Virus record (IMG/VR): IMGVR_UViG_3300028103_000015
From: a virus
Lineage: Duplodnaviria; Heunggongvirae; Uroviricota; Caudoviricetes
Reading direction: 5' to 3' (one strand)
Length of the DNA: 14,338 bases
Position 1 is the stretch's first letter, and every line of letters starts with the position of its first letter. Positions 1-14,338 of the stretch are shown piece by piece. Below the pieces are notes generated by a model. That model was not told where the DNA came from, made no database searches, and saw only the letters and a list, made by a program, of their open reading frames with translations. Position numbers and translations under genes: made by a program.

Positions 1-6
1 AAAAAT

Positions 7-37
7 TTTGTTATTCAAAATAGTTGGTTTACCTTTG
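7..37 (+). promoter_or_regulatory. Bacteroidota primary sigma factor promoter (TTTG-N19-TACCTTTG)
   Basis: TTTG at 7-10 and TACCTTTG at 30-37 match the -33 TTTG / -7 TAnnTTTG consensus with a 19-nt spacer, 19 nt upstream of the ATG at 57. Confidence 0.75.
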
Positions 38-56
38 GAGGTAAAATCAACCATAC

Positions 57-923
57 ATGAATATAATATTCCAAATTAATGGCGGTATTGGCAAGGTGAT
101 TGCTGGTACCGCCATTTGTGCTTCTATCAAGGCTAAGTATCCTGATAGTAAACTTATTGTTGTCTCTGGTTATCCAGATGTATTCTTAGGTAATAAGAAT
201 GTTGACAGAGCATACGCTTTTGGACAACAGGCTTATTTCTATAAGGAATACATTGAGAATCAAGAGATTATGGTATTTGCACACGATCCATACTTGGAAG
301 CAAAGCACATTAAACAAGATGAACACCTTATTGAAACATGGTGTAATTTGTACGGTTTACCAGTAACAAAGACTGTTGGAGAGCTATTTCTTACACAGAG
401 AGAAATAGATTTCTTTAGCAAAAAATTTGTTTCTGATAAGCCTATTTTTTTGATGCAAACTAATGGTGGTGCTGAGACAGAACAGAAATACTCTTGGGCT
501 AGAGATATTCCTAGCTATATAGTAGAGAATGTTATACATGAGTTTAGAGAGAAGTATAACATTGTTCATATAAAGAGAGAAGATCAGATAGGTTATGAAG
601 GAACATTTGCTGTGTCTGATACCTTCAGAGCATTGATTGTTCTTATAAGCCTTAGTGAAAAGAGATTGTTAATGGATAGCTTTGGACAACATGCAGCTGC
701 AGCTTTGAATAAACCTTCTACAGTGTTGTGGGTTGCTAACAGTCCTAAGGTGTTTGGATATGACTTACATACAAACATTGTAGCTAACCCAGGAACAATT
801 AGTCCAGAATTAAGAAATGCCTATCTAAGTAAGTATAATATTGGAGGTGACCCTATTGAGTTTCCTTACAACAAAGAGTCTGAAATATTTAATGTAGATG
901 CTGTAATTAACTCCTTAAAATAA
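57..923 (+). CDS. GT9 (heptosyltransferase-like, GT-B fold) glycosyltransferase, 288 aa
   Basis: N-terminal IFQINGGIGKVIA followed by IKAKYPDSKLIVV. C-terminal LLMDSFGQHAAAALNKPSTVLW matches the GT9 DSG.xH.AAA..kP.v.l.g pattern. The usual catalytic Asp of GGIGD is Lys here. Confidence 0.7.
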   Translation: MNIIFQINGGIGKVIAGTAICASIKAKYPDSKLIVVSGYPDVFLGNKNVDRAYAFGQQAYFYKEYIENQEIMVFAHDPYLEAKHIKQDEHLIETWCNLYGLPVTKTVGELFLTQREIDFFSKKFVSDKPIFLMQTNGGAETEQKYSWARDIPSYIVENVIHEFREKYNIVHIKREDQIGYEGTFAVSDTFRALIVLISLSEKRLLMDSFGQHAAAALNKPSTVLWVANSPKVFGYDLHTNIVANPGTISPELRNAYLSKYNIGGDPIEFPYNKESEIFNVDAVINSLK

Positions 924-929
924 ACCAAC

Positions 930-1751
930 ATGGAAAAGATATTCTATCAAAGCTCATTGCCTAGAGCAGGAAGTACATTATTACAAAACATACTAGCTCA
1001 AAATCCTGATATATACGCTACACCTACAAGTGGTGTGTTAGAACTTATATTTGGTGCACGTGCTAACTATACAAACTCAGCAGAGTTTAAAGCTCAAGAT
1101 CCTGAGTTAATGAAAACAGGATGGCAAGCATTTGCTAAAGCTGGAATGGATGCATTCTACAATGCTGTTACAGATAAAAAATATGTGATAGATAAGTCTC
1201 GTGGATGGGGTATTCACTATGATTTCTTACAGTTTGTACAAGGTGGTGAACCTAAAATCATTTGCATGGTTAGAGACCTACGTGATGTATTTGCTTCTAT
1301 GGAGAACAACTTCAGAAAGCATCCTGAGAAGCAATCAGACATTTTGGATTGGTCTAAAGGTCAAGGTACTACTGTACCAAAGCGTATTGATATCTGGTCA
1401 CAGAATCCTCCTGTAGGACTAGCTATTGAAAGACTAGCTGAGATATTTAGACTAGGTATTAATACTAAAATATTATTCATTAAATTTGAAGACCTATGTC
1501 TCTATCCAGAAACAGAGATGACAAGGATATATCAATACCTTGGTATACCACACTACCACCATGATTTTGATAACATTGAGCAAATTACTAAGGAGGATGA
1601 TGAAGTGTATGGAGCATTTGGTGATCATGTCATTAGAACAAAGCTAGAGCCTGTTCCTTCTAGAGCAAAAGCATTGTTAGGGAAAGATGTAGTTGATTGG
1701 ATATACAACAACTACAAATGGTTTTATGACTATTTTAGATATTCAAAATGA
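930..1751 (+). CDS. PAPS-dependent sulfotransferase, 273 aa
   Basis: 5'-PSB loop SSLPRAGSTLL, DKSRGW, 3'-phosphate-binding VRDLRDVFAS, then KFEDL...TRIYQYLGI. Confidence 0.88.
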   Translation: MEKIFYQSSLPRAGSTLLQNILAQNPDIYATPTSGVLELIFGARANYTNSAEFKAQDPELMKTGWQAFAKAGMDAFYNAVTDKKYVIDKSRGWGIHYDFLQFVQGGEPKIICMVRDLRDVFASMENNFRKHPEKQSDILDWSKGQGTTVPKRIDIWSQNPPVGLAIERLAEIFRLGINTKILFIKFEDLCLYPETEMTRIYQYLGIPHYHHDFDNIEQITKEDDEVYGAFGDHVIRTKLEPVPSRAKALLGKDVVDWIYNNYKWFYDYFRYSK

Positions 1752-2191
1752 TTATAGTGTTATTTGGACAGCCTAATTGTGGAAAGTCCACATTGGCTGA
1801 TGCGCTTATAAAGGAAAGGTTTACTATTGTAAACATTGATGGAGACAAGCTCAGAGAGATATTTGTGAACAAAGATTACAGCAGAGAGGGGAGAATCAAG
1901 AATCTGAACAGGGCTAGTGATATTGCTACGTTCATGAGCACTATTGGGGATGACATCATCCTATCTCTCGTATATCCATATAAGGAAGCTAGAGACTACC
2001 TCAACAGCTTGTGTGACTCTGTCTATTGGGTTTATTTGACATATGATGAGCCTAGAGGCAGGGAATCATTTCATGTAAAGGATTTTGAAGAGCCTGGAGA
2101 TGATGAACGTGTTCTTCGTCTGAACACTTCTACAACATCCATAGAGGACTGTATAACTAAAATAATGACACATGCAAAACTTCTTGGCTAG
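1748..2191 (+). CDS. cysC: Adenylylsulfate (APS) kinase-like P-loop kinase, compact form, 147 aa
   Basis: P-loop GQPNCGKST, IDGDKLRE, DYSREGRIKNLNRA (cf. LDGDxxR...FSxxDRxENIRR). ATGA overlap with the sulfotransferase stop. Confidence 0.78.
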   Translation: MIIVLFGQPNCGKSTLADALIKERFTIVNIDGDKLREIFVNKDYSREGRIKNLNRASDIATFMSTIGDDIILSLVYPYKEARDYLNSLCDSVYWVYLTYDEPRGRESFHVKDFEEPGDDERVLRLNTSTTSIEDCITKIMTHAKLLG

Positions 2192-2570
2192 ATCAGCAGG
2201 ACCCACTTCTTCCAATGACAAGAAATATTCTATGTTTATAGGAAGATGGCAACCCTGGCACGCTGGACACAGATGGTTAATTGACCAGAGACTCAATGAA
2301 GGAAAGAATGTCCTCCTCTGTATAAGAGATGTAGAACCAGATGAGAAGAATCCTTGGACCGCACATCAAGTGATGTTAAACTTATTCGATGAACTTAAAG
2401 ACTTGGTTGAATCAGGAAGAGTTAGGGTTATTACTATACCTGATATTGAATCTATTAATATTGGTAGGGGTGTTGGTTATGATGTCATAGAACACGTACC
2501 CCCTCAGGAGATACATGACATATCTGCTACAAAAATCCGTGAGCAAATGAAAGTAGAAGGTAAGCTATGA
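2172..2570 (+). CDS. Small HxGH-superfamily (cytidyltransferase-like) nucleotidyltransferase, 132 aa; candidate sulfate adenylyltransferase or NMN adenylyltransferase-like
   Basis: FIGRWQPWHAGH and C-terminal ISATKIRE motifs. Overlaps cysC by 20 nt. An alternative start at MFIGRW is possible. Confidence 0.75.
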   Translation: MQNFLARSAGPTSSNDKKYSMFIGRWQPWHAGHRWLIDQRLNEGKNVLLCIRDVEPDEKNPWTAHQVMLNLFDELKDLVESGRVRVITIPDIESINIGRGVGYDVIEHVPPQEIHDISATKIREQMKVEGKL

Positions 2571-2779
2571 CTGTAAGCAAGAAAAGACATATAGCCAAAA
2601 CAATCAGCTACAGGATTGTCAGCACACTCATTGGGTTTGGTATTATGTGGCTAGTGACAGGAAGTGTGAAAATAGGAGCTGCATTTGGTGTAGCTGAGCT
2701 AGTGTACAAGCCTATACAATATTACCTACATGAGCGTATTTGGTATAAATGGATTAGATATGGACTGAAGAAAGACTAA
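2567..2779 (+). CDS. DUF2061-family small membrane protein, 70 aa
   Basis: KRHIAKTISYRIVST...TGS..IG..E...K...YYLHERIW pattern. ATGA overlap with the upstream gene. Confidence 0.75.
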   Translation: MTVSKKRHIAKTISYRIVSTLIGFGIMWLVTGSVKIGAAFGVAELVYKPIQYYLHERIWYKWIRYGLKKD

Positions 2780-3569
2780 GCATTGCTTTGTATTCTTCTA
2801 GCCCTTTCTCCAAATTGTATTTAGCTTCCCAACCAGGCATAAACAAATCAGCCTTGGTAAACATCTGATAGTTGTCAGGCATTTCAAACTTGAACTTGTA
2901 TTTGAATGGTATATCCATTATCTCTAGAACATTCTCAAACGTTCTGGGCTCTCCTGTTCCTACATCAAACCATCCTCCTTTGAATTCATTGTAATGCTGC
3001 CAGGCATACAAATTTGCATCTACAACATCCTTTATATACACAAAGTCTCTCACAGGTTGTCCTGGAAAGAGCATCACTTCTTCTCCAAGCTGATGTTTCT
3101 TATAAGATTGATGAGCAATAGAAGCCATGTTTCCTTTGTGCATTTCTCCTGGTCCATACACATTGAAATAACGTAGGGCCACTCCCTTGCTCTTTATTAC
3201 AAACTCCTCTCCCAGAAACTTACTCCATGCATAGAGTGTTTCAGGACTTCCCTTTGTTCCATATATAGCAGCTGATGAACTATATATAATGGGAATGCCT
3301 CTGTGCTGACACCAGCTAGCAATGATGTTAGTGGAATGTACATTGAGCATAAGCATCTCATTGATGTCCTTGTTCTGTGTATCTGAACAAGCACCTACAT
3401 GAAACACCACTTCTGGGTTCATGTCTACAAGATATTCTATAAGTCTATCCTGCCATCTGGCTCTATCAAATATCCATTTCTCAAGACCCTTTACAGTGTG
3501 CCCCTGTCTTTCAAGTTCTGTCTGTAAAGCTTTGCCAATAAATCCGTTGTTACCTGTTACGCAGACCAT
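2754..3569 (-). CDS. hldD: ADP-L-glycero-D-manno-heptose 6-epimerase (extended SDR), 271 aa
   Basis: VTGNNGFIG, FHVGACSDT, YSSSAAIYG, YAWSK, LRYFNVYGPGEMHKGNMAS, RDFVYIKDV and YQMFTKADL together are the HldD/RfaD signature set. Start moved to the ATG at 3569 (MVCVTG). Confidence 0.85.
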   Translation of the reverse strand: MVCVTGNNGFIGKALQTELERQGHTVKGLEKWIFDRARWQDRLIEYLVDMNPEVVFHVGACSDTQNKDINEMLMLNVHSTNIIASWCQHRGIPIIYSSSAAIYGTKGSPETLYAWSKFLGEEFVIKSKGVALRYFNVYGPGEMHKGNMASIAHQSYKKHQLGEEVMLFPGQPVRDFVYIKDVVDANLYAWQHYNEFKGGWFDVGTGEPRTFENVLEIMDIPFKYKFKFEMPDNYQMFTKADLFMPGWEAKYNLEKGLEEYKAMLSLSSVHI

Positions 3570-4210
3570 ATGTGTATTATTATTTCTGTATAATATGCTA
3601 GGAATTCTTCTGACCAAACTCCTGCTGTGATGTCCACACCATCCAAGGAATACACCTTGAAATTTACATCATGTAAATATTCATCTCTAAACTTCTTGAA
3701 TTTTTGTTTCAGAAGAAGATTGCTCAAATGCCATTCTCCAGCTATCTTCTTCATATTGCTCAGTATCCATGGTTTGTTTTCTAGGGTGAATATGTCATAC
3801 TCCCCACCCTCACAATCCATCTTAAGGAAGTCTATCCTACCAATATTGTAATCTTCAATCACCTGCTTAAAGGTGGTGCAATACGTAGATTCCCCCTGAT
3901 CATCAAAGACAAACTCACCATCAAACTTACCTACATGTCCTGATATAGCTTTGTTGATACATGTAACAGGAGCGTGTCTTGTATTATACACCAGTGTCTT
4001 AAACTCTGAATAACTAGGCTCAAAACAGAACACGTGCTTTGGATGCTTATCTAGGATGGAATAGGTGAATATACCTATACTTGCTCCAATATCAAACACC
4101 ACATCACCCTCTTCTACGGTGAAGCATTTCTCATATATCCTATCTACAAATGTTTCTCTCTTTACTGTCTCTATAAATATGGCGTCTGATGTTCCCCAAT
4201 TAAATTCCAT
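3557..4210 (-). CDS. FkbM-family SAM-dependent methyltransferase, 217 aa
   Basis: VVFDIGASIGIFT, VFCFEPS, IDFLKMDCEGGEYDIF. Confidence 0.85.
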   Translation of the reverse strand: MEFNWGTSDAIFIETVKRETFVDRIYEKCFTVEEGDVVFDIGASIGIFTYSILDKHPKHVFCFEPSYSEFKTLVYNTRHAPVTCINKAISGHVGKFDGEFVFDDQGESTYCTTFKQVIEDYNIGRIDFLKMDCEGGEYDIFTLENKPWILSNMKKIAGEWHLSNLLLKQKFKKFRDEYLHDVNFKVYSLDGVDITAGVWSEEFLAYYTEIIIHIWSA

Positions 4211-7200
4211 GATTGTATTTTTTTAATTACGTCTTCAGATTTAATAGATGTCTGACATTCCCATTGTCTGTCTGTTCCTTTATGCACAGGACACCAGTTC
4301 CAATCTCCTGCATCAAATCTGTATTCAGCTTTGTTCCAGCATCCATGACATACATTCTCATTAGTAATTCTAATACAGCTAAACTCATGGTCAGCAGCTG
4401 TAAAGTTACTAATCATTACCACTTGTTTATTCAGAGCCCAAGCTAACCAGCTTAGCCCACTGGATAGTCCTATAAAGAACTCACTGTGATGGATAACATT
4501 CATGGTGTTCTCCATAGATGTATCTTCAAGCTGTTCACAATTGTCAAAAGGATTCTTCTCCTTGGACACATTAACTATCTTATATCCATTCTCATGTAAG
4601 AAGTTGATGGTGAGCTGCCAGTCTTCCTTCTGCCAAAACTTACATCCAGCCGTTGAATTAGTGGCTATTGTAACATATCTACCATATGAATTGTTACCAG
4701 GTGTAAAGGCTAAACGTGGTCTAATCTCTTGAAAATCAAGACCTAAGATGTTGGTTGCTGTCTGTTGGAGGGGAATAGTATTACACAAAGCTGGCTCCTT
4801 ATTACCATCATAGAACCAACCCACACTGTACATACCAAGGATGTTACCTACACCTGTTCCTGGTTCTACAAACTCAAGCTCTGGATAGACACTCTCAAAT
4901 AGGAAGTTCTTAAATGTGCTCACTGTTACATGGCAATTGTGCTTCCTCTTGAACTCAAGTACATATGGCATCCATGCAATTGTGTCTCCTAGTGATTTGC
5001 TATCCATAGCTATATAGACACGCTGGCCCTCATAATTGAGTGTATACTCATAGTATATACTTTCATCCTTCCACACCTTGATGGTCCATTTGGTAAACCA
5101 TCTCCTGTTGAGCTTCACCCAGTGATTCACCTTTATCTTGTTCTCATAGTGACACACACCCTGCTCATCATAAAATCTGACAGTGAAGGTGCTTTTGGAA
5201 TTACCTGTTATCTCTAGGAATGGCTCGTGTATAAATGTGTGGGTGATATTAATCAGTTCTTTGTCAGGCTGTATGGGTCTATTCATCACCTCCTGATACA
5301 GATCAATATGCTTCTGTGCGAAATCAAGCTTCTGTCCTTCAGGAATATCGTAGCTCACATCTGTATCTAACAGCTGGGTGAGCTGTTCTTTCATCTTTTC
5401 AGGCTTCAGATCTGTAATATACTGAGTGAACATGTCTCCATACTGAGGAAGATTTCTTGCCAGGATTGGCAGTCCATATCCTATAGCTTCTCTAATCACC
5501 AGTGGATTGCATTCAAATGTACTGTTAAACAGGAACACATCTGCAGCTGCCATAAACCTACCCACATCATCACGCTCTCCCCATACATGTACATTAGGTG
5601 GTATGTCCTTCATAATGGGTTCCCAGTAGTGCTGGAAGTTACCAGCCTGATTACCTACAAAGTGGAATTGTACATCTGGCATTTGTCTAGCCAGCTCTAC
5701 AGCTTCTCCTTGGTTCTTACCAGCAGTCCATAGTCCTACATTAAGCACATGTTTACCAGGTCCTAGATCTATGGGCTCAGATTCTTTCTTCACGATAGGA
5801 AACTCAATCACCTCCTTTCTAGAAGGCATATTAGCAAACGTCTTTAGATGGTGTGGTGTACAGAACGCATATGCATCTGGATGATAGCGCTTCTCTAAGT
5901 CTGGCTTGAACACAATGTTGTGACATGTTTCAATCATCCTCCAGGTTCTATTTGGACTGTACAGCGCTTGTCTCACCTCTTCTGGCCAGTTGTTCCAGCC
6001 ATCTTCCACCATCTCATCCACATGCACTATATCTACAGCATGTCTTTTGATGATATCAATCACCTCCATCTTATTCTCTCCCAAGGTGTAGAAGTGGTGG
6101 GCTATTTCCTTTATCTGATTCTTCTGGACAACAAAGTGATCACTGTGGTTGGAATACTCCACAACAATAATCTTAGATTTGGAATAGGCCAACAGATCTG
6201 CTATTCTCTCTAAAAGGAAGGCAGGCATTCCACCTGTCGATAGATGTGGTGCCAGGAATAATATCTTAAGCTGATTCTTCTGGCGCTCTAACATTCTGTA
6301 CATAGTGACAGCATCCTTTTCTCCGTGATAGAATAGTAACTGGTCTACATCTGCAGGCACAGCTACAAAATGTGCTAGGTGCTGCTTCTTAGTTCTGAAT
6401 GTGACATTATTCACTGTGTTCAAGGATCCATTCATGTATATGTATGGTAGTCCATCTAATGCCTTGTACTTCCACAGAAGCACGTTAGCTATAGTTTCCT
6501 CATGATAGGGAGCATAGTATTGTGGATTCTGTAACACCTTGGGATGGTTACACATCCACCACCAACTGTCAAGGAATTCTTGACAGTATTCACCAGCTAC
6601 AAAATATCCTGTTTGTCTGTATTTATCTCTGATGTATTGATCTACACCAAACAGCTCACAAGCTGGATGTTCAAGAGTAGTGGATAGGTCATCTCTACTA
6701 TCAGCCCCACCTCTTCCATTGCTGATCATCCATTCATATATTCCCTCTGTAAAATACGGATAGGCACTCTTCACTGGGAAATAGTCAAATATTCTGTCTA
6801 CATACTTGGTAGCCACACTATCACTATCCACATAGGCCACTGTTTTAGCATGCTTTAACGCTTCTTTAACAATTAGTGGGCGCTGGATGAGGATGTTGTA
6901 AATGTCTGGATTAGCTCTGTCTATATACTTCTGCTGAGGAAGATCCTTGGTTTTACAATCCCAACGGAATGTAGCAGCTCCCTTTATATCCACATCTGAG
7001 TTGAGCATATAAACCATAACAGGTAGACTGCTAAAGGTTCTAAGAGAATCTACGCACGCCTGCACAGTGTCCTTATAGCTCTCTGTAGCATATAAGACAT
7101 ATGCTTTTTCCCATCTAATGTCCTGATTTACATAGTATCCATACCACTGGTTGTCATATAGCTTCTCCAGTCCTGGGTAACGCTCTAGCATCACCTCTGG

Positions 7201-7623: not shown

Positions 7624-7643
7624 AACTGATTGGCTTTCTGTTA

Positions 7644-7675
7644 CAAAGATAGAAAAAAGATTTGGTAGTTTCAAA
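7644..7675 (-). promoter_or_regulatory. Bacteroidota sigma70-type promoter driving the fusion GT-FkbM-hldD operon
   Basis: The minus strand reads TTTG (7675-7672), N20, TATCTTTG (7651-7644), ending 20 nt before the ATG at 7623. Confidence 0.78.
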
Positions 7676-7692
7676 TAAATTACATAGATTTG
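7661..7692 (+). promoter_or_regulatory. Bacteroidota sigma70-type promoter driving the cupin-rfaE2-rfaE1 operon
   Basis: TTTG 7661-7664, N20, TAGATTTG 7685-7692. Overlaps the divergent promoter back to back. Confidence 0.75.
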
Positions 7693-7698
7693 CCCCAC

Positions 7699-7717
7699 AA
7701 GTGGAGTGTATCCACTT
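7699..7717. repeat. Inverted repeat / 5' leader hairpin
   Basis: AAGTGGA (7699-7705) GTGTA TCCACTT (7711-7717): a perfect 7-bp stem with a 5-nt loop at the predicted start site of the + promoter. Confidence 0.6.
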
Positions 7718-7728
7718 TATGCTATATT

Positions 7729-8076
7729 ATGCACGAACTACATAAAGTTGAGAAGGGTTGGGGTCACGAACTCTGGATCCATAACTCCCCAGAATACTGC
7801 GGAAAACTGCTGGTTTTCAAGGCTGGCAAGAAGTTCTCAATGCACTTCCACAAGATAAAGCAGGAGAGCTGGTATGTAAGCAAAGGGTCCTTCCAATATA
7901 CATGGGTGGACATGTCTACAGGCACCCTCTATACAGACTATCTGAAGGAAGGAGATGCTCTAACCATTATGCCCTACCACCCTCACCAGCTGGAAGCTCT
8001 AGAAGATGGCATCATATTTGAGGTGAGTACACAACACTTTGATGAAGATAGCTACAGACTATGGAAGGGGGACTAA
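7729..8076 (+). CDS. Cupin-fold protein (sugar isomerase-like), 115 aa
   Basis: KGWGHELWI...YCGKLL, metal motif 1 SMHFHKIKQESWYV, motif 2 IMPYHPHQL, then EVST. Start moved from the TTG at 7690 to the ATG at 7729. Confidence 0.75.
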   Translation: MHELHKVEKGWGHELWIHNSPEYCGKLLVFKAGKKFSMHFHKIKQESWYVSKGSFQYTWVDMSTGTLYTDYLKEGDALTIMPYHPHQLEALEDGIIFEVSTQHFDEDSYRLWKGD

Positions 8077-8471
8077 GGGTATGGGTGAATGGAGCATTTG
8101 ATGTCCTGCATATAGGGCATATTCAACTCCTTAAAAGAGCTAAAGAGTTTGGTAGTGTGAGAGTGGGTGTTGATAGTGACGCACGTGTTGCAGAATTAAA
8201 AGGTGATAGTAGACCATTTAACAAGCTGTCTGACAGAATAGATTTCCTGAAGAGCATTAGGTATGTGGATGAGATAGTATCATATGATTCTGAGGAAGAG
8301 CTCACCAACCAAATCAAACTTTATGAACCAGACATCATGGTGATAGGATCTGACTACATGGGAAAAAGAATAGTGGGGGCTGAATATATAACACAGATAG
8401 TATTCTTTGACAGAATAGAACATAAATCAACTACATCAATATTAGGGTATGAAGCTGGTGGTAATAGGTGA
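8061..8471 (+). CDS. rfaE2: D-glycero-beta-D-manno-heptose 1-phosphate nucleotidyltransferase-like (HldE/RfaE domain II), 136 aa
   Basis: NGAFDVLHIGH, VGVDSDARV..LKGDSRP, PDIMVIGSDY, KSTTSI. Adjacent to a RfaE domain I gene. Confidence 0.8.
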   Translation: MEGGLRVWVNGAFDVLHIGHIQLLKRAKEFGSVRVGVDSDARVAELKGDSRPFNKLSDRIDFLKSIRYVDEIVSYDSEEELTNQIKLYEPDIMVIGSDYMGKRIVGAEYITQIVFFDRIEHKSTTSILGYEAGGNR

Positions 8472-9189
8472 TGTCTGCAAGGATGTCTTCATCTATGGAG
8501 ACTGTAAACGCTTAAGTCCAGAAGCACCTGTACCTGTATTTAATCCAGTGGAAACAATAGAGAACTCAGGAATGGCTGGTAACGTGGTAGCCAATCTAAG
8601 TGCTATCAACCCCAACCTGCAGATAAATTTCCATCACAACTTTGAGAACATTACCAAAACCAGGTATGTAGATAAGAAGACCAATCACCTTTTCCTAAGA
8701 GTGGACGATGAGCCAAAGGTGAATAGAATATTCCTCACAGCTCAGCTTATTGAGGATGTAGAAACTGCAGATGCTGTGATTGTGAGTGACTATGACAAGG
8801 GATATCTAACAGAAGATGACCTGCAATATATAGCTGTTAAAGCTAAGTGGTCCATCTTAGACAGCAAGAAGCATTTAAAACCACACACCATATCAAACTA
8901 TTCATTCATCAAACTGAATGAATCTGAATACAATAAAAACAAACAGTCTCTAATTTACATGAGAGACAAAGTGATAGTGACACTTAGTTCCAAAGGAGCA
9001 ATGCATAAAGATGTTACATACAGCTCCCCAAGTCCAAAAGAAACTATAGATGTAAGTGGTGCAGGAGATACGTTCGTTGCAGCATTTACAATTAAATACT
9101 TGGAAACCAAAGACATATCTACGTCTATTGAATATGCCAATCTTATGTCATCTATTGTGGTGGGTAAGAGAGGTGTTGTAACCCCATAA
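8449..9189 (+). CDS. rfaE1: D-glycero-D-manno-heptose 7-phosphate kinase-like PfkB kinase (HldE/RfaE domain I), 246 aa
   Basis: VIGDVCKD..YG..RLSPEAPVPV, GMAGNVVAN, TKTRY, SDYDKGYL, DVSGAGDTFVAA, AN...IVVGKRG. Confidence 0.87.
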   Translation: MKLVVIGDVCKDVFIYGDCKRLSPEAPVPVFNPVETIENSGMAGNVVANLSAINPNLQINFHHNFENITKTRYVDKKTNHLFLRVDDEPKVNRIFLTAQLIEDVETADAVIVSDYDKGYLTEDDLQYIAVKAKWSILDSKKHLKPHTISNYSFIKLNESEYNKNKQSLIYMRDKVIVTLSSKGAMHKDVTYSSPSPKETIDVSGAGDTFVAAFTIKYLETKDISTSIEYANLMSSIVVGKRGVVTP

Positions 9190-9204
9190 ATAATTTCTAA
9201 CTAC

Positions 9205-9246
9205 ATAGCACACTATTCCTGTTCGGAGGGAAGGGTGTGCTATTTT
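9205..9246 (+). terminator. Probable intrinsic terminator ending the heptose operon
   Basis: ATAGCACAC (9205-9213) pairs with GTGTGCTAT (9235-9243). An inner TTCCT/AGGGA stem surrounds a GTTCGG loop, and a short T run follows. It lies 15 nt after the rfaE1 stop. Confidence 0.65.
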
Positions 9247-9261
9247 CCATTATGTAATGAA

Positions 9262-9549
9262 ATGAAAGAGAACGAGTCTGTAACAGCAATCAAATCTTGG
9301 GTGTTCCCAGGTCTCATCACAGTGCTAGCAGCCATTATTTGGAGTGATGTACAAGAGATCAAGTCTGATGTAAAGGCCCTAATGGCCCAGTCAAACATTG
9401 ATAAAACTAGGATTGATAACCTAGAACGAATAATATACCAACAAAACGATCCCATAAAAACCTTCTATCCAGGTTCAGAAAGAACCTTGGCAATATTGCC
9501 AAACAACAATTTTGAATTTAAAAAGAAGGAAAATGAAAAAGTTCTTTAG
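9262..9549 (+). CDS. Single-TM protein with coiled coil (holin/antiholin-like), 95 aa
   Basis: WVFPGLITVLAAIIW TM segment then EIKSDVKALMAQ..RIDNLE heptads. Start moved to the ATG at 9262 because 9235 lies inside the terminator. Confidence 0.55.
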   Translation: MKENESVTAIKSWVFPGLITVLAAIIWSDVQEIKSDVKALMAQSNIDKTRIDNLERIIYQQNDPIKTFYPGSERTLAILPNNNFEFKKKENEKVL

Positions 9550-9787
9550 TGACTTATTCAATGATGACAACAAGATTAATGAAAAAAGCTTCATTGGTTT
9601 TCTTGCATTTGTAATGATGACAGTGTTTGCTGTGTCAGACATCGTTACAGGATCTCTTGGTAAGGATCTGGTTATTAATGACTTCATTTTTAACGCGTTC
9701 CTCTACCTCACTCTTGGATGTTTTGGTATAGCATCCATAGACAAATACATTAACAAAAAAGGTGATAGTGATGAACAAGCTTCTTAG
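9533..9787 (+). CDS. Two-TM holin candidate, 84 aa
   Basis: Two hydrophobic helices (FIGFLAFVMMTVFAVS; FIFNAFLYLTLGCFGIAS) and a charged C-terminus, in the lysis cassette. Start at the ATG at 9533. Confidence 0.6.
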   Translation: MKKFFSDLFNDDNKINEKSFIGFLAFVMMTVFAVSDIVTGSLGKDLVINDFIFNAFLYLTLGCFGIASIDKYINKKGDSDEQAS

Positions 9788-10364
9788 TGTAATTATCGTA
9801 GTGCTTATAGGCTTTTTAGTATTCAAAGGAAATGGATGTGGAGGGGATGTCCCCAAAGCTGACACAGTGGTGGTGCATGACACATCATGGCAAGTGCATG
9901 ATAGCCTCATCATTAAGAAGATGAAGGTGAAAGAAGTGATTCATGACACACTGCCTCCTGAGTATATAGCTGATACAAACTACCCAAAGCTGAAGGCACA
10001 ATACGAAGAATTGGCTAAAGCTTTCCTGGCTAAGAAGATATACGCTGATACACTAAAACTTGACACTCTAGGATATATAGCTGTAGCTGACACTGTACAG
10101 AAGAATGAACTTCAGAATAGATCGTATGACTACAAATATAAAATCCCAACAATCACCAACACTGTCACCATAACAAAACAAGACCCACCTAAAGGTGCTT
10201 TATATGTAGGAGGCGGTGTGTCTGGAGAGAAAACCAATGGAATAAATTCTGTAAGAGGAGGGTTGCTTTACAAAACCAAGAAGAACACCATGTTTGGTGT
10301 ACATACTGGCTTTGCAAACAACCAGCTGGTTTATGGAATAGACGCTTATTGGAAACTTAAATAA
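9771..10364 (+). CDS. N-anchored envelope protein with four C-terminal amphipathic beta strands (spanin candidate), 197 aa
   Basis: N-terminal TM/signal LLSVIIVVLIGFLVF with a possible weak lipobox GNGC, a DT-rich periplasmic part, and Gly/aromatic-rich strands ending YGIDAYWKLK. Confidence 0.55.
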   Translation: MNKLLSVIIVVLIGFLVFKGNGCGGDVPKADTVVVHDTSWQVHDSLIIKKMKVKEVIHDTLPPEYIADTNYPKLKAQYEELAKAFLAKKIYADTLKLDTLGYIAVADTVQKNELQNRSYDYKYKIPTITNTVTITKQDPPKGALYVGGGVSGEKTNGINSVRGGLLYKTKKNTMFGVHTGFANNQLVYGIDAYWKLK

Positions 10365-10371
10365 ACTATAA

Positions 10372-10500
10372 ATGGAAAAATTGATTGAGCTCTTAAAGAG
10401 TCTGTTCAGCAAGGGTGGCCTTGTTGAGAAGGTTAAAACCATCAAACAATTAGACAAAGAAGTTAAGAAAATAATCCCTGCTAAAAAAAAGAAGAAATGA
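10372..10500 (+). CDS. 42-aa cationic amphipathic peptide (not in the ORF track)
   Basis: MEKLIELLKSLFSKGGLVEKVKTIKQLDKEVKKIIPAKKKKK. It fills the gap after the upstream gene, and its TGA overlaps the endolysin ATG (ATGA at 10497-10500). Confidence 0.65.
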   Translation: MEKLIELLKSLFSKGGLVEKVKTIKQLDKEVKKIIPAKKKKK

Positions 10501-11096
10501 ACCTAGAGAAACTGAAAGGACATATACCAGATGATGTGATTGCACAAATCCCTGAGGTGGGAGAGAAGTTTCAAATCAATTCTCCTCTCAGACTAGCCCA
10601 TTTCCTTGCACAGTGTGGACATGAGAGTGGTGGGTTTAAATTCAAATCAGAGAACCTCAACTACTCAGCTGAAATCCTCAGAAAGGTGTTCCCTAAATAC
10701 TTCCCAGACATTGTTGTAGCTAAGCAATACGAGCGTAAGCCAGAAGCTATTGCTAGCAGAGTGTACGGAGGGCGTATGGGTAATGGTCCTGAGGCTTCAA
10801 AAGAGGGGTTCAAGTACAAGGGTCGTGGCTTCATCCAACTCACAGGGAAGCAGAACTACACTGCATTTGATGCTACAGTGCCTGAAGATATACTAGCTAA
10901 TCCAGACTTGGTAGCCACTAAATACCCCCTACTTTCAGCAGCCTGGTTCTGGAATAGCAGGAAGCTGAACAGCATAGCTGATCAGGGAGCAACGGATGAA
11001 GTGGTTACCAAGATTACCAAGCTGGTAAACGGTGGCACCATAGGACTAGCAGATAGGATTAAACACTTCAAAGAATATCATAAACTGTTAGGATAA
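10497..11096 (+). CDS. Glycoside hydrolase family 19 endolysin, 199 aa
   Basis: RLAHFLAQCGHESGGF, ENLNYS, YGGRMGN, YKGRGFIQLTGKQNY, SAAWFW, TKLVNGGTIGLADR. Confidence 0.92.
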   Translation: MNLEKLKGHIPDDVIAQIPEVGEKFQINSPLRLAHFLAQCGHESGGFKFKSENLNYSAEILRKVFPKYFPDIVVAKQYERKPEAIASRVYGGRMGNGPEASKEGFKYKGRGFIQLTGKQNYTAFDATVPEDILANPDLVATKYPLLSAAWFWNSRKLNSIADQGATDEVVTKITKLVNGGTIGLADRIKHFKEYHKLLG

Positions 11097-11479
11097 TGGC
11101 AAACGCTCAACCTAAACCCAAACCTAAAAGATCTAGGAGATCTGGACTTAAGAAAGCCAAGCTTATTAAGAAAAACATTGATGTGATCTATAATTTATGG
11201 ACACAGATGAACGCTCAACAGCTTACAATCATCATCATTATTATAGGGTTGTTTATAAGCAGTTGTGCTAATGTTAAATATGTTTATGTTGACCCCAAAG
11301 ACTCAGTGGTGAGAAGACAGAGAGTAGTATATGACAACTATATAGCACCTAGTCCTTTTTATGATCCGTTCTTTAGGCCCTATTTCTGGGGACCTAGACA
11401 GATTATAATTGTACCTAGAAACCAGCCCCAAAGACCAGGATTTGGTCCATTGCCCCCAACACCTAAACCCCGTAGATAA
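11096..11479 (+). CDS. Proline-rich lipoprotein (o-spanin-like candidate) with a basic N-terminal extension; alternative start at 11207
   Basis: TAATG overlap with the endolysin stop. Hydrophobic IIIIIIGLF then lipobox ISSC (Cys codon 11264-11266), and a Pro/Arg-rich C-terminus. Confidence 0.6.
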   Translation: MANAQPKPKPKRSRRSGLKKAKLIKKNIDVIYNLWTQMNAQQLTIIIIIIGLFISSCANVKYVYVDPKDSVVRRQRVVYDNYIAPSPFYDPFFRPYFWGPRQIIIVPRNQPQRPGFGPLPPTPKPRR

Positions 11480-11480
11480 A

Positions 11481-11786
11481 ATGGCTACATCGAAAAAAGG
11501 AGTGAGCGTATCAGCCAATCCTCTTCCAATATCCTTTAAAGACTTTGCAAAGAATCCTGTAGTGGGCACCCTGTTTCTGGTGCTCATTGCTATTTCCTAC
11601 CTGTATATAGACATTCGTTCTACATTCCAAGATCAAGCTAGAAAGCAAGATGCTCGCATTGAGAAGGTGGAAGGAAGACTAGACCTTGTACAGGATGCCC
11701 TAAGAAGAAGTGACAGTGCTAAGGCTGTAACAAGTACACAGCTTAGGACCCTTCAAGAACTAGGAGCCATCAAAAAAGTTAACTGA
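11481..11786 (+). CDS. Single-TM coiled-coil protein (i-spanin-like candidate), 101 aa
   Basis: VVGTLFLVLIAISYLYI TM segment then QARKQDARIEKVEGRLDLVQDAL heptads. The ATG at 11481 immediately follows the upstream stop. Confidence 0.6.
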   Translation: MATSKKGVSVSANPLPISFKDFAKNPVVGTLFLVLIAISYLYIDIRSTFQDQARKQDARIEKVEGRLDLVQDALRRSDSAKAVTSTQLRTLQELGAIKKVN

Positions 11787-12118
11787 TGAAACAACTTTTA
11801 CCCATAATCCTTATAGTTTTCTATTCTTGCCAATCTGGTAATGCTCAAAAGGTAGACCCTACACTTGGTGAAGATAGAGAGTTTGAGGAGTTTATGAAAC
11901 AAGTGAATTATAATCAAGCAGTTGCAGCAAAAATACAAGCTGAAGCTGCCAAAAGCCAAACCAAACTAGTAGAACAAACAGTATCCAAAATTGTCACCCT
12001 CAAAACTGAGGTGACAACATTAAAAACAGAACTCAACGATGTTAAACAAAAGCTTGATAGCGTTACTGCTGACACTGGGAACACTTACAGGGTGGTCCCA
12101 ATCGACCACTTACCCTAA
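11786..12118 (+). CDS. Coiled-coil lipoprotein (o-spanin-like candidate), 110 aa
   Basis: MKQLLPIILIVFYSC lipoprotein signal, heptads IVTLKTEVTTLKTELNDVKQKL, TGATG overlap with the upstream gene. Confidence 0.65.
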   Translation: MKQLLPIILIVFYSCQSGNAQKVDPTLGEDREFEEFMKQVNYNQAVAAKIQAEAAKSQTKLVEQTVSKIVTLKTEVTTLKTELNDVKQKLDSVTADTGNTYRVVPIDHLP

Positions 12119-12440
12119 AACCAAAAGGATAGGACAGGACTCTGTCGTAATAATAACCATCAAGCAAGCTGACCAAATTAATGATACATTCCGTCTTTAC
12201 AAAGACAGCATAGCATTAACCATAGACAGCATAATAAAACAGAAAAAACTATTAGACAGCCTCAGGTTGGAACATTACAACCTAAAGAACGCTCCAAATG
12301 AATACAAATGGAAGTATGAGGCCAATAGGGAGATCTACTTCAAAAGAGAAGAGTCTATAAAGAGGGATGAGAAATACCATTTCCTTCAGAAGATAATGCT
12401 TGTAGGTCTTGTTGTATTCTTATTCTCTCAATTAAAATAA
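12039..12440 (+). CDS. Exported protein with N-terminal signal peptide and C-terminal TM anchor, 133 aa
   Basis: MLNKSLIALLLTLGTLTGWSQ signal, a central coiled-coil-like part, and a terminal IMLVGLVVFLF segment. Overlaps the upstream gene by 80 nt. Confidence 0.6.
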   Translation: MLNKSLIALLLTLGTLTGWSQSTTYPKTKRIGQDSVVIITIKQADQINDTFRLYKDSIALTIDSIIKQKKLLDSLRLEHYNLKNAPNEYKWKYEANREIYFKREESIKRDEKYHFLQKIMLVGLVVFLFSQLK

Positions 12441-12445
12441 ACCAC

Positions 12446-12577
12446 ATGGCAAAAGCAAAAACCAGCAAAGGAGAAGCTACAAAGATCTCCTTTGGCAAAA
12501 GAAAGAAGGGCAAAGCTCAGAAAACTCAGGGTCCTAAAGACAAACCAGTGAGCAAGTATAGGGGGCAAGGAAGATGA
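12446..12577 (+). CDS. 43-aa highly basic peptide ending KYRGQGR (not in the ORF track)
   Basis: MAKAKTSKGEATKISFGKRKKGKAQKTQGPKDKPVSKYRGQGR. Starts 5 nt after the upstream stop and overlaps the next gene by ATGA. Confidence 0.7.
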   Translation: MAKAKTSKGEATKISFGKRKKGKAQKTQGPKDKPVSKYRGQGR

Positions 12578-12717
12578 AAAAGATCCTATCCCTAATAGTG
12601 TTAGGTTGGGTAACCGTGGCATTATTCATACAGCTTACATTCGTAACACTGTCTTTCACAAACCCTGATAAGGCTACACAGCTGGCTAGAAGAATGATGA
12701 ACACCATCTCTAACTAA
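12574..12717 (+). CDS. 47-aa single-TM membrane peptide (not in the ORF track)
   Basis: MKKILSLIVLGWVTVALFIQLTFVTLSFTNPDKATQLARRMMNTISN, with an ATGA overlap at 12574-12577. Confidence 0.6.
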   Translation: MKKILSLIVLGWVTVALFIQLTFVTLSFTNPDKATQLARRMMNTISN

Positions 12718-12728
12718 GTTAGTTAGAG
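12708..12728. repeat. Perfect 10-bp inverted repeat with 1-nt spacer (terminator or operator)
   Basis: CTCTAACTAA-G-TTAGTTAGAG, covering the stop of the last cassette gene and followed by TCGTTTT. Confidence 0.65.
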
Positions 12729-12769
12729 TCGTTTTAATCAATCTTGTTATTGTAATTTGTTGAGGCTCA

Positions 12770-12799
12770 TTGTTTTTTGTTATAAACACCATATTTTTG
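12770..12799 (+). promoter_or_regulatory. Probable Bacteroidota-type promoter for the Ser/Thr-rich protein genes
   Basis: TATTTTTG at 12792-12799 matches TAnnTTTG. TTG at 12770-12772 (3/4 match to -33) lies 19 nt upstream. The region is an AT-rich gap. Confidence 0.55.
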
Positions 12800-12806
12800 T
12801 ATACTT

Positions 12807-13454
12807 ATGGCCATACCATCCCGTCAGATAGGCTGGGGCACACAGGACAACCTGCTGTGGCAGATTGCAAAGCAACTGGAGGGAGCCTCTTGTCAGCTCT
12901 GTACGTTGAATGATAACATAGCCACTATTACAGGCACCTCTGGTACAAGTGGGACTAGTGGTGTTAGCGGATCTAATGGTACATCAGGTACCAGTGGGCT
13001 TTCTAGTTTTAAATACGGATCTTTCTATAGCACTGTGGATCAATCACTTGCAAAGGATGCTATAGGACCTTTTACATTTAACAACACAGACCTAAGTAAT
13101 GGTGTTAGTGTGGTTTCTAGTTCAAGAATTACACTGGCTAACGCTGGTAAATACAACATCCAGTTTAGTGCACAGTTTCATCACATAGGTGGTGGAGGAT
13201 CTGGGGAAACAGTGAACATATGGCTTGCTAAAAACGGCTCAGATATAGCTGACTCAAACACAAGACTCACTATCACCTCTAGTACTAAGTATAGTGTGGC
13301 AGCCTGGAACTTCTTTGTAGATGCTTCAGGAGGAGACTATTATGAAATCATCTGGTCTACAGATAATGCCAATATAAAAATAGAACATGAGGCTGCTGGT
13401 GTGCATCCTGCTATACCATCAATAATTTTAACAGTCAATCAAATAGGAATATAA
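12807..13454 (+). CDS. Collagen-like (Gly-Thr-Ser) fibre/decoration protein with a C-terminal beta-sandwich (BclA-CTD/C1q-like), 215 aa
   Basis: N-terminal module with CQLC, seven Gly-X-Y triplets, then YGSFYST...FTFNNTD.SNG...ITL.NAG.YNIQFSAQ...IWL.KNG.DI..SN...GDYYEI, the pattern seen in BclA/C1q-type trimeric heads. Confidence 0.62.
   Translation: MAIPSRQIGWGTQDNLLWQIAKQLEGASCQLCTLNDNIATITGTSGTSGTSGVSGSNGTSGTSGLSSFKYGSFYSTVDQSLAKDAIGPFTFNNTDLSNGVSVVSSSRITLANAGKYNIQFSAQFHHIGGGGSGETVNIWLAKNGSDIADSNTRLTITSSTKYSVAAWNFFVDASGGDYYEIIWSTDNANIKIEHEAAGVHPAIPSIILTVNQIGI
12933..12998 (+). repeat. Gly-Thr-Ser tripeptide repeat (GTSGTSGTSGVSGSNGTSGTSG)
   Basis: 22 codons with Gly every third residue. 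Synonymous codons vary between units (ggc acc tct / ggt aca agt / ggg act agt). Confidence 0.9.
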
Positions 13455-13455
13455 C

Positions 13456-13605
13456 ATGGCAATACCATCAAGGGGCATAGGTTGGGGTACAACGGAGAAC
13501 TTGTTGTGGCAAATTAGCAAACAGCTGGAAGGAATATCTTGCCAGCTTTGTGATTTGAATAACAATTTCACTACCACCACAACCACCACCACATCACCAG
13601 TGTAA
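13456..13605 (+). CDS. 49-aa paralog of the fibre protein N-terminal module with a poly-Thr tail (not in the ORF track)
   Basis: MAIPSRGIGWGTTENLLWQISKQLEGISCQLCDLNNNFTTTTTTTTSPV. 30 of the first 37 aa are identical to the 12807 protein. Confidence 0.85.
   Translation: MAIPSRGIGWGTTENLLWQISKQLEGISCQLCDLNNNFTTTTTTTTSPV
13570..13593 (+). repeat. Poly-threonine tract (8 Thr codons)
   Basis: act acc acc aca acc acc acc aca. Confidence 0.85.
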
Positions 13606-13608
13606 TAT

Positions 13609-13651
13609 TTTGCGCAAAGTACCTAAAACAGGTACCGTTCGCAAATTTTTT
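13609..13651 (+). terminator. Probable intrinsic terminator after the 49-aa gene
   Basis: Outer stem TTTGCG (13609-13614) / CGCAAA (13640-13645), inner stem GTACCT-AAAAC-AGGTAC (13619-13635), then TTTTTT (13646-13651). Confidence 0.65.
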
Positions 13652-13670
13652 ATAACCAACAAAACTACAT

Positions 13671-14338
13671 ATGAAGGATTTAAAGTATGTTTGTGTTCAG
13701 CCTGACGACACCTATTACACATGGCAGGTGCATTTATGGTTGGAGAGCCTTAGAAAAAGAAACGAATCTGACAAGGCTATTGTTCTTATATTCATTCCTA
13801 ATTACAGAGAAAAGAATCCAAAATGGCAACAGGTGATTGACCTGTATCCAGAAGCTGAGTTTCATTTCTACAAGGATGAACATGATGTGAGTCAATTGTT
13901 AGGAATCTACATTCCTGTATTAAGACCTTATACTCTCTGGAGACACTGGAAAGAGCATCCAGAACTAAGTGATAAGGCAATATTCTACTGTGACTCAGAC
14001 ATCCTCTTTACAGAGAAGTTTGATGTTCAAAAGTACATAGATGACGATGTTTGCTATCTCTCTGAAACTACAAGCTACATAAGCGCTGCATATTTTGACA
14101 GCAAGGTGAAGGATGTCCTTCCTGAGAAGCTGGAAGAATACAAGACAAGAGATATTCTTGCAGAAATTGGTAGTGTGATTGGCATAAGTAGGGAGGAAGC
14201 AGAAGCTAAGAACAATGACTCTGGTGGAGCTCAATACCTCCTTAAGAATGTAGACTCTAAGTTCTGGAACAAGGTGATGAATGACTGCATCCTCATTAGG
14301 AGTTATCTACAGAAAGTGAACAAAGAATATTTTGAGAA
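13671..14338 (+). CDS. GT-A fold glycosyltransferase, 5' part only (truncated by the window edge, not in the ORF track)
   Basis: Open frame from the ATG at 13671 to the window end: MKDLKYVCVQPDDTYYTWQVHLWLESLR...GIYIPVLRPYTLWRHWKEHPEL...IFYCDSDILF...SGGAQYLLK. It has a DxD motif after a hydrophobic strand. Confidence 0.78.
   Translation, partial: MKDLKYVCVQPDDTYYTWQVHLWLESLRKRNESDKAIVLIFIPNYREKNPKWQQVIDLYPEAEFHFYKDEHDVSQLLGIYIPVLRPYTLWRHWKEHPELSDKAIFYCDSDILFTEKFDVQKYIDDDVCYLSETTSYISAAYFDSKVKDVLPEKLEEYKTRDILAEIGSVIGISREEAEAKNNDSGGAQYLLKNVDSKFWNKVMNDCILIRSYLQKVNKEYFE

Follow-up and report, generated by a model that had tools for sequence, protein, structure and literature searches.

The closest described relatives of the system considered here are TibC/TibA and Aah/AIDA-I, in which the gene for a soluble cytoplasmic heptosyltransferase of the BAHT family lies close to that for a repetitive extracellular fibre protein rich in Ser/Thr (PDB 4rap, 4rb4; PMC4358343). 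In TibC, Asp110 is the catalytic base, Thr226 and Lys230 are ligands of the beta-phosphate, Trp305 is a ligand of heptose O4, and Arg286 contacts adenine N1, the R286A mutation impairing the enzyme (PMC4358343). Here we analyse a 14,338-nucleotide stretch of phage DNA (IMG/VR virus record IMGVR_UViG_3300028103_000015; hereafter the window), which encodes a BAHT domain that resembles TibC in family score, in its catalytic and donor residues and in its four iron-finger cysteines. Unlike TibC and Aah, this enzyme is phage-encoded, is fused behind a methyltransferase, a GT-A and a GT4 domain, and has the position of Arg286 replaced and Ser or Gly in place of Pro300; the phage neighbours of the family are collagen-like Gly-Thr/Ser-Ser fibres and not autotransporter beta-helices. 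We hold with moderate confidence that the BAHT-containing enzyme O-glycosylates virion fibres, that the acceptors are collagen-like Gly-Thr-Ser proteins, and that the phage itself supplies part of the heptose donor.

To our knowledge, phage virion glycosylation has been shown experimentally only for mycobacteriophages, where Freeman et al. are said to have demonstrated it in 2023 in Cell Host Microbe, with C-terminal extensions of the capsid and tail-tube proteins as acceptors. That system also has phage glycosyltransferases beside structural genes and Ser/Thr-rich acceptor tracts on virion proteins, and differs in enzyme families, acceptors and hosts; we know of no donor-synthesis genes, BAHT enzyme or sulfotransferase in it. 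Giant viruses encode both nucleotide-sugar synthesis and transferases for their own particle, as in the chlorovirus capsid and the mimivirus fibrils. These are eukaryotic viruses with other sugars and other enzyme families, whereas the donor pathway described below is incomplete. In the literature that we searched there was no paper on a BAHT-fibre pairing, on TibC or heptosylation in phages, on glycosylated collagen-like phage fibres, or on the Microcystis phage Mel-JY01 that is discussed below.

The four-domain enzyme is encoded at positions 4171 to 7623 on the minus strand, and Pfam and NCBIfam profiles, alignment with TibC and a fold model divide it into a class I methyltransferase, a glycogenin-like GT-A domain, a GT4 domain and a BAHT domain of the TibC/Aah type. 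The gene probably starts at 7623 and specifies a product of 1150 amino acids (aa), as the gene caller of the source has it; the residue numbers used here follow a 1175-aa version. The BAHT domain (residues 835-1162) scores 259.6 bits with TIGR04414, against a curated equivalog cut-off of 200, and matches the TibC structure 4rap with an E value of 1.1e-44. D905, T1016, K1020 and W1084 align with Asp110, Thr226, Lys230 and Trp305 of TibC, and the counterparts of these four residues are invariant across 44 distinct phage BAHT homologues. The iron-finger cysteines C1117, C1120, C1136 and C1148 align with Cys339, Cys342, Cys358 and Cys370 and are kept in 40 of the 44, while the position that governs stereoselectivity, Pro300 in TibC, is Ser (as in Aah) or Gly in the phage homologues. 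Judged by these residues, the domain looks catalytically competent. The remaining four homologues (L010, L053, L054 and L055) have lost all four cysteines and kept the catalytic and donor-binding residues; such domains would probably not form the TibC-type dodecamer.

Pfam and NCBIfam profiles found the N-terminal class I methyltransferase domain, and the GT4 domain scores above its Pfam threshold. The GT-A domain (residues about 195-480) has a DSD motif, and its model, with a predicted local distance difference test score (pLDDT) of 65 and a good first 120 residues, matches the retaining GT-A enzymes glycogenin, UGGT and GT6; a PDB sequence search with a profile of this mid-domain found nothing. 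The entire layout is kept in eight relatives (L002-L008, L011) at 55-84% identity. An earlier note on this DNA had listed the Aah/TibC domain, a GT9-like protein, GT4 and GT-A domains, two methyltransferases, and GTS-repeat and poly-Thr proteins, and we found all of them as it stated.

The association of this enzyme family with fibres extends well beyond the source phage. We collected 59 viral loci with BAHT homologues, most of them just 36-43% identical to the window's domain, and many carry giant collagen-like open reading frames (ORFs) of up to 503 triplets that are proline-free and have 70-99% Ser/Thr at the X and Y positions. After de-duplication, 15 of the 27 loci flanked by 10 kb or more held such a Ser/Thr-type ORF, which lay between 74 bp and 6.5 kb from the BAHT gene, at a median distance of about 1.2 kb. 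For the reverse test, the sole criterion for picking IMG/VR records was a run of ten Gly-[Ser/Thr-type]-[Ser/Thr-type] triplets, and each whole record was then searched for TIGR04414. BAHT was found in 27 of these 72 records (26 above the curated cut-off), and in 6/8 when the records were at least 90% complete; in the controls it was found in none of 38 records picked for a proline-type collagen pattern and in 2 of 48 (the two related) picked for a random 14-mer. Fisher's exact test of 27/72 versus the pooled controls (2/86) gave p = 6e-9, a value that overstates the case, since related phages are not independent samples. The pairing persists among loci whose gene orders and BAHT sequences differ widely, and the BAHT family is statistically tied to Ser/Thr-only collagen-like fibres across diverse phages.

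One of the phages with a BAHT-fibre pair, Microcystis phage Mel-JY01 (L400, PP395634.1), is in culture, which makes the idea directly testable. Its positions 2-3052 on the plus strand hold an unannotated Gly-Thr/Ser-Ser collagen-like ORF of at least 1016 aa, which lies 1.7 kb upstream of a 1226-aa fusion of an FkbM methyltransferase with a BAHT domain. In this fibre region GenBank gives instead two antisense 'hypothetical proteins' with PVPE repeats. We also considered the P-SSM2 tail fibre that adjoins the cyanophage heptose cassette as a Gly-Thr-Ser acceptor and rejected it, as that protein is not of the Gly-Thr-Ser type.

In the source phage, two tail-fibre genes occupy the 10 kb upstream of the window and stand directly ahead of it. 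One product, of 905 aa, is made almost wholly of Gly-Thr-Ser triplets and is proline-free (Pfam Collagen, E 4.5e-63). The other, of 990 aa (L064 5860-8832, equivalent to window positions -3211 to -239), has about 40 short Gly/Ser/Asn-rich beta-roll repeats and ends in an S74 intramolecular chaperone. Within the window, positions 12807 to 13454 on the plus strand encode a 215-aa mini-fibre (phrog_30509, collagen-like minor tail) with a 37-aa N-terminal handle, eight Gly-Thr/Ser-Ser triplets and a C1q/BclA-like head; the head is common to freshwater phage proteins annotated as C1q-like and gives a weak BclA_C match, and 100 blocks of the assembly collection contain the exact protein. BclA of the Bacillus anthracis exosporium is a collagen-like protein with Gly-Pro-Thr repeats that are O-glycosylated on Thr with rhamnose-anthrose oligosaccharides. 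The mini-fibre shares its layout of N-terminal anchor, Gly-X-Thr/Ser stalk and C1q/TNF-like head; the Gly-Pro-Thr repeats and the unrelated glycan enzymes of BclA set it apart, and the likeness is confined to fold class.

Directly after the mini-fibre, positions 13456 to 13605 (plus strand) encode a 49-aa protein that consists of a handle and a poly-Thr tail, is conserved at 65-95% in L002-L006, L008 and L011, and is a further candidate acceptor. Its first 37 residues closely match the handle of the mini-fibre, and this segment, with two cysteines, is found at 12807-12917 and 13456-13566 of the window and at 74831-74941 and 75616-75696 of G001; it may be a common docking segment for different glycan-bearing tails. 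Two more poly-Thr mini-proteins follow the 338-aa gene at the window's downstream end, beyond the window. The best candidates for acceptors are the proline-free Gly-Thr-Ser collagen-like fibres, that is, the 905-aa protein upstream and the 215-aa protein in the window. The Ser/Thr-rich acceptors that the earlier note saw next to the enzymes, GTS-repeat and poly-Thr proteins, are indeed present, with the correction that the main candidates are collagen-like fibres and that the 905-aa one lies outside the window.

Exact copies of the window's proteins were found on metagenome contigs of 50-108 kb from ENA and JGI. A contig of 105,586 bp wraps round, and because its two ends meet inside the four-domain transferase gene it suggests a complete, circularly permuted genome. 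The window stretch is present in at least 18 river metagenome runs and 6 river metatranscriptome runs, and its source is an abundant uncultured river phage with a genome of roughly 105 kb. Among the genes of relative G001, a 90%-identical IMG/VR record of 113,936 bp that is 99% complete by CheckV and has an exact 40-mer in common with the window, are those for the large terminase, the portal, the major head protein, RIIA and virion structural proteins. The terminase of G001 comes nearest to that of Leptolyngbya phage Lbo-JY46 (41%), then to those of Cellulophaga phages phi4:1 and phi17:2 (34%), and crAss-like phages come next at 26-29%. The Bacteroidota promoter consensus TTTG-N-TAnnTTTG has five matches in the window against 0.37 expected, and three of the five precede operons. 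Because of these terminase relatives and promoter matches, we assign the source to the tailed phages of the broader crAss-related group; its host is probably a member of the Bacteroidota. That the contig might be a cellular lipopolysaccharide (LPS) or capsule locus, which would have undone the earlier note, is contradicted by the structural genes of G001 and the position of its terminase near those of phages. A megablast of the entire window against GenBank phages gave no match.

The supposed heptose donor genes have their nearest described counterparts in cyanomyoviruses. The 'LPS gene' cassette of P-SSM2, S-SM2 and S-SSM7 comprises a nucleotidyltransferase, a PfkB kinase, a cupin annotated 'cysteine dioxygenase' and a short-chain dehydrogenase/reductase (SDR) epimerase. 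These members, T4-GC 304, 305, 307 and 308 in that order, are co-occurring 'LPS genes' without an assigned use (PMC3037559), and cyanophage 'LPS genes' have been read as host-surface genes (PMC1079782). The window holds homologues of all four, clustered and 30-47% identical, in another phage lineage with another host. The product of 2754..3569 (minus strand, 271 aa) is an HldD-like NDP-heptose 6-epimerase, with a TIGR02197 score of 179 bits; its best four PDB matches are all ADP-L-glycero-D-manno-heptose 6-epimerases, and YSSSAAIYG, YxxSK and HKG align, with the catalytic Ser, Tyr and Lys. The nucleotidyltransferase (8061..8471, plus strand, 136 aa; phrog_7878, E 2e-38) resembles HldE domain II, the heptose-1-phosphate nucleotidyltransferase. 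TIGR02199 is its best model at 99 bits (E 2e-28), with glycerol-3-phosphate and ethanolamine-phosphate cytidylyltransferases scoring close behind, and its PDB matches are ECT, HldC (5x9q) and TagD. The kinase (8449..9189, plus strand) resembles HldE domain I, the heptose-7-phosphate kinase, and at 246 aa is shorter than the 315-position model TIGR02198, which is its best at 125 bits (E 2.6e-36). Its sole PDB match is the heptose-7-phosphate kinase HldA (4e84), with SPEAPVPV and GAGD aligned, and it is 35-42% identical to the T4-GC 305 proteins of 34 cyanophage records. The two HldE halves and HldD that the earlier note placed here were thus recovered by profile and PDB matches.

The fourth member is a 128-aa metal-binding cupin (7690..8076, plus strand; phrog_7851, E 6.5e-37) with weak Pfam matches to Lyx_isomer, Cupin_2 and MannoseP_isomer and a candidate HxH...E...H metal motif, read by eye. 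It accompanies the kinase in G160, G007 and G033 and is missing from G001, and it is a candidate sugar isomerase or epimerase. One option, suggested by the weak matches to manno-type aldose-ketose isomerases and the co-presence with the kinase, is that it stands in for GmhA; against this, P-SSM2 has the cupin plus a gene annotated as phosphoheptose isomerase. The alternative candidate role is that of an NDP-heptose epimerase. Searches for GmhA (TIGR00441) and GmhB (TIGR00213) gave no match in G160 (95% complete, with the cassette), G007 or G033, and no homologue of T4-GC 306, the cyanophage 'phosphoheptose isomerase', occurs in the 32.5 kb around the window.

The cassette and the four-domain enzyme are joined by a divergent promoter gap at 7624..7728, which separates the transferase operon from the donor operon and contains two interdigitating matches to TTTG-N-TAnnTTTG on opposite strands. 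Contigs from four river metatranscriptome runs end or begin at 7596-7723, at this gap, and none of the metatranscriptome contigs listed bridges it; these breaks fit, weakly, with transcription from divergent promoters. The cyanophages in question have no BAHT gene, whereas here the cassette has a candidate consumer, because it shares its promoter gap with the gene of a protein O-heptosyltransferase. The cassette is nonetheless incomplete and dispensable in the lineage. In the 99%-complete G001 the genes for BAHT, the GT9-like protein, the sulfotransferase and the kinase/nucleotidyltransferase pair are kept and all five cassette-side genes are absent, and a kinase homologue was present in only 4 of the 29 BAHT-positive records tested. 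Host enzymes, or enzymes that have escaped recognition, must carry out the isomerase and phosphatase steps and, in many of the relatives, provide the donor altogether. The earlier note had credited the phage with its own heptose donor within a self-sufficient system. Candidates for the kinase, nucleotidyltransferase and epimerase are there; because GmhA and GmhB are lacking in three complete relatives, G001 has no cassette and few BAHT records have the kinase, 'self-sufficient' is too strong, and an accessory cassette that boosts the donor fits better.

From this arrangement we infer that the window is the core of a region for fibre O-glycosylation, carried by a crAss-related lytic phage of rivers. 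Within the cytoplasm of the infected cell, BAHT would move heptose from nucleoside diphosphate (NDP)-heptose to Ser/Thr hydroxyls of the 905-aa fibre and the C1q-headed 215-aa mini-fibre; the poly-Thr mini-proteins may be further targets. Lengthening of the glycan would fall to GT4 and GT-A, the domains fused to BAHT, and to the GT9-fold protein encoded separately, and the methyltransferases and sulfotransferase would decorate it, while the cassette (heptose-7-phosphate kinase, heptose-1-phosphate nucleotidyltransferase, 6-epimerase and cupin) would top up the donor as an accessory, incomplete supply. Candidate benefits are stabilisation of the triple helix in place of hydroxyproline, shielding from proteases, or adhesion. 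No membrane segment is predicted in any of the sugar enzymes, and all are predicted to be soluble. The analysis itself shows what the genes are, that the catalytic residues are conserved, that the setting is one of fibre genes and that BAHT and fibres are associated; we infer from these which protein is the acceptor, which sugar is used, how the steps follow one another, sulfation and the benefit, and a sulfated, methylated heptose glycan would be a purely conjectural composition. The central claim of the earlier note, that virion or fibre proteins are glycosylated, gains from the position of the soluble enzymes between tail-fibre genes and from the tie between BAHT and fibres.

Several observations weigh against fibre heptosylation. 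The acceptor is assigned by gene neighbourhood, and about 44% of the well-flanked BAHT loci have no Ser/Thr collagen nearby, while the fragments of the two BAHT-positive records in the random control contain no run of eight such triplets. Established BAHT acceptors are beta-helical autotransporters and not collagen-like repeats (PMC4358343). No autotransporter is present here, where the neighbours of BAHT are collagen-like and beta-roll tail fibres, and the 990-aa beta-roll fibre, closer than collagen to the beta-helical substrates, could be the acceptor instead. The counterpart of TibC Arg286 is Thr1065, and across the 44 phage homologues this position is Thr, Val, Ile, Leu or Ala and never Arg. 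Because the residue is replaced throughout, the nucleotide preference of the phage enzymes cannot be read from TibC, and the nucleotide, hence the sugar, may differ from that of TibC. In the cassette, the kinase, nucleotidyltransferase and epimerase all fall under the NCBIfam equivalog cut-offs (345, 181.5 and 274.6 bits), and distances of 38-142 kb separate the genes for kinase, cupin and BAHT from one another in G007 and G033, so that outside this lineage any functional link between cassette and BAHT is conjectural.

Two further enzymes could act on the same glycan. ORF 57..923 (plus strand, 288 aa) encodes a GT9-fold glycosyltransferase, the second heptosyltransferase-like enzyme of the window. 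It has no Pfam match and a PDB sequence search was also empty, the GT9 assignment being by fold only: its AlphaFold2 model (pLDDT 81) has the GT9 structure 3tov as best Foldseek match (E 2.5e-10, TM 0.69), and the top nine matches are all GT9 (3tov, WaaF 1psw, WaaC), followed by TibC. The gene pairs with the sulfotransferase gene in L004, L006, L008, L046 and G001. A homologue with 23% identity (E 1e-11) is PSSM2_307 of P-SSM2 (L078 2690-3802), annotated as hypothetical, which sits 1.8 kb upstream of the P-SSM2 heptose cassette. Positions 3557..4210 on the minus strand encode a 217-aa FkbM-family methyltransferase, above cut-off with Methyltransf_21 (39.8 bits) and TIGR01444 (61.4 bits). FkbM homologues occur alongside BAHT in 17 of the 59 viral loci, and the two are fused in Mel-JY01.

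The sulfotransferase (930..1751, plus strand, 273 aa) scores 63.2 bits with Sulfotransfer_3 and 46.3 bits with Sulfotransfer_1 (cut-offs 27 and 22), belongs with phrog_27463 (E 1e-42) and shows a weak likeness to NoeE. Two stretches, LPRAGSTLL close to the N-terminus and RDLRDVFAS around the middle of the protein, resemble the 5'-phosphosulfate-binding (5'-PSB) and 3'-phosphate-binding (3'-PB) motifs for 3'-phosphoadenosine 5'-phosphosulfate (PAPS), as judged by eye and not by alignment with a solved enzyme. The next gene (1748..2191, plus strand) encodes a 147-aa P-loop kinase similar to adenosine 5'-phosphosulfate (APS) kinases. It scores 41.9 bits with Pfam APS_kinase (cut-off 21.1), covering positions 4-98 of 152 only; fourteen of the best PDB matches are APS kinases, and every NCBIfam model is far under its cut-off. 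Against 2yvu the P-loop, DGD and following motifs align, and the C-terminal third aligns weakly. It is followed by a 132-aa nucleotidyltransferase (2172..2570, plus strand; CTP_transf_like, 22.7 bits) that resembles nicotinamide mononucleotide adenylyltransferase (NMNAT), an archaeal NMNAT being its best PDB match (E 4.5e-5). The two ORFs together correspond to the fused phrog_10255 'kinase'. A small DUF2061 protein (2567..2779, plus strand; Pfam 64.8 bits) comes next, and its gene travels with the kinase/nucleotidyltransferase pair in L002, L004, L008 and L052.

The adjacency of sulfotransferase and kinase is conserved in five relatives, while L003 and L052 have the kinase/nucleotidyltransferase pair and no detectable sulfotransferase. 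As a single fused gene the pair is also found in Xylella, Xanthomonas, Stenotrophomonas and Clavibacter phages, one example being gp32 of Xylella phage Salvo (L401). In the Xylella-type siphophages the fusion lies between MazG-like and topoisomerase genes, with no sulfotransferase, a context that hints at a role unrelated to sulfation. No recognisable ATP sulfurylase (Sat or CysDN) was found in the window or its flanks. PAPS made by the phage through adenylyltransferase plus 3'-kinase logic is possible but unproven, and the 132-aa protein is a candidate minimal ATP sulfurylase, an idea that loses ground because its fused homologues in Xylella, Xanthomonas and Stenotrophomonas phages have no sulfotransferase beside them. 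The sulfotransferase and the APS-kinase-like gene are therefore where the earlier note put them, with Pfam scores above threshold, while the 'own PAPS' that it read from them is weakened by a lid-less kinase, an NMNAT-like partner and a fusion that elsewhere keeps company with DNA-metabolism genes.

An alternative that we regard as unlikely is a mixed one: only the BAHT enzyme would serve fibres, and the cassette, the sulfotransferase and the kinase/nucleotidyltransferase pair would be independent accessory metabolic genes, for instance for nucleotide or NAD-type salvage, gathered in a hypervariable region. The setting of the fused pair amid DNA-metabolism genes in Salvo agrees with this, as do the NMN adenylyltransferases among the best matches of the nucleotidyltransferase, the lysis cassette that breaks up the region, and the differences between close relatives, G001 being without the cassette, L003 and L052 without the sulfotransferase, and gene orders varying. 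Independent genes would not be expected to keep the sulfotransferase-kinase adjacency of the five relatives, to share a divergent promoter gap between donor and transferase operons, or to recur with a sulfotransferase beside four cassette genes within 4 kb in marine virus AG-345-O18. This virus (L402, MH319759.1) is unrelated to the source phage, and its record is without annotation; the stretch at 4484-8597 holds the sulfotransferase, both HldE halves, the cupin and the HldD-like gene.

Remodelling of the host surface, in which LPS core, capsule or surface glycoproteins would be altered during infection, for instance to keep out superinfecting phages or to stop progeny from adsorbing to debris, is improbable in our view. 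The cassette is homologous to the cyanomyovirus genes long read as LPS genes (PMC1079782, PMC3037559) and occurs in cyanophages that have no BAHT, and the GT9 enzymes WaaC and WaaF, whose fold ORF 57-923 shares, act on the LPS core without a membrane segment. Against this, the 32.5 kb around the window contains no flippase (Wzx), polymerase (Wzy), ABC exporter or lipid-carrier (polyprenyl-phosphate) transferase. No integrase was seen in the stretches of the phage examined, where an RIIA homologue and a lysis cassette are present. The BAHT family, moreover, modifies proteins and is tied to fibre genes, and the region is embedded in a fibre module. That the cluster modifies phage DNA or a small molecule, and not protein or the host envelope, is highly improbable: phage glycosyltransferases that hypermodify DNA are known, and the methyltransferases and the kinase/nucleotidyltransferase pair are not acceptor-specific by sequence, but the region showed no gene of a hydroxymethyl-pyrimidine pathway and we know of no DNA-modifying members of the BAHT, GT9 or sulfotransferase families.

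Fibre O-glycosylation by the BAHT-containing enzyme can also be put in a wider form, which we offer as tentative. Phage BAHTs would be widespread, undescribed O-glycosyltransferases that heptosylate proline-free Gly-Ser/Thr-Ser fibres, the glycan replacing hydroxyproline; the cyanomyovirus 'LPS genes' would be the donor supply for virion glycosylation; and the glycan here would in addition be methylated, and sulfated with PAPS made through the 132-aa protein as a minimal ATP sulfurylase. What gives the question weight is that BAHT is a well-characterised family, distinct from the mycobacteriophage enzymes, and strongly associated with a type of fibre that is frequent in aquatic phages. If the proposal is right, there is a broad class of glycosylated phage fibres, with a bearing on adsorption, host range, stability and the stickiness of particles in water; the cyanophage 'LPS genes', unexplained since 2005, acquire a concrete role; and new protein-glycosylating enzymes with simple repeat acceptors become available.

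The remaining parts of the window and its flanks are more heterogeneous. Positions 9262-12440 form a lysis cassette. It encodes a GH19 endolysin, a 42-aa ORF and three small membrane proteins, together with spanin-like proteins, two of them membrane-anchored and one with an apparent lipoprotein signal. It takes about 3.2 kb of the window, interrupts the sugar-enzyme region and lies outside the glycosylation system. At the downstream end, 13671..14336 (plus strand) is the 5' two thirds of the gene for a 338-aa candidate GT-A protein glycosyltransferase (phrog_4417, E 1e-52) with a DSD motif. The language-model neighbours of this protein, a lead only, belong to the HPAT, GT6 or GT8 families, and hhalign found nothing shared with the GT-A mid-domain of the four-domain enzyme outside the DxD stretch. 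The 9 kb beyond the window contain the rest of this gene, the two poly-Thr mini-proteins, four GT2 genes and another methyltransferase. Between the lysis cassette and the mini-fibre, positions 12446-12577 hold a 43-aa, very lysine-rich ORF that is called as a gene on every source contig.

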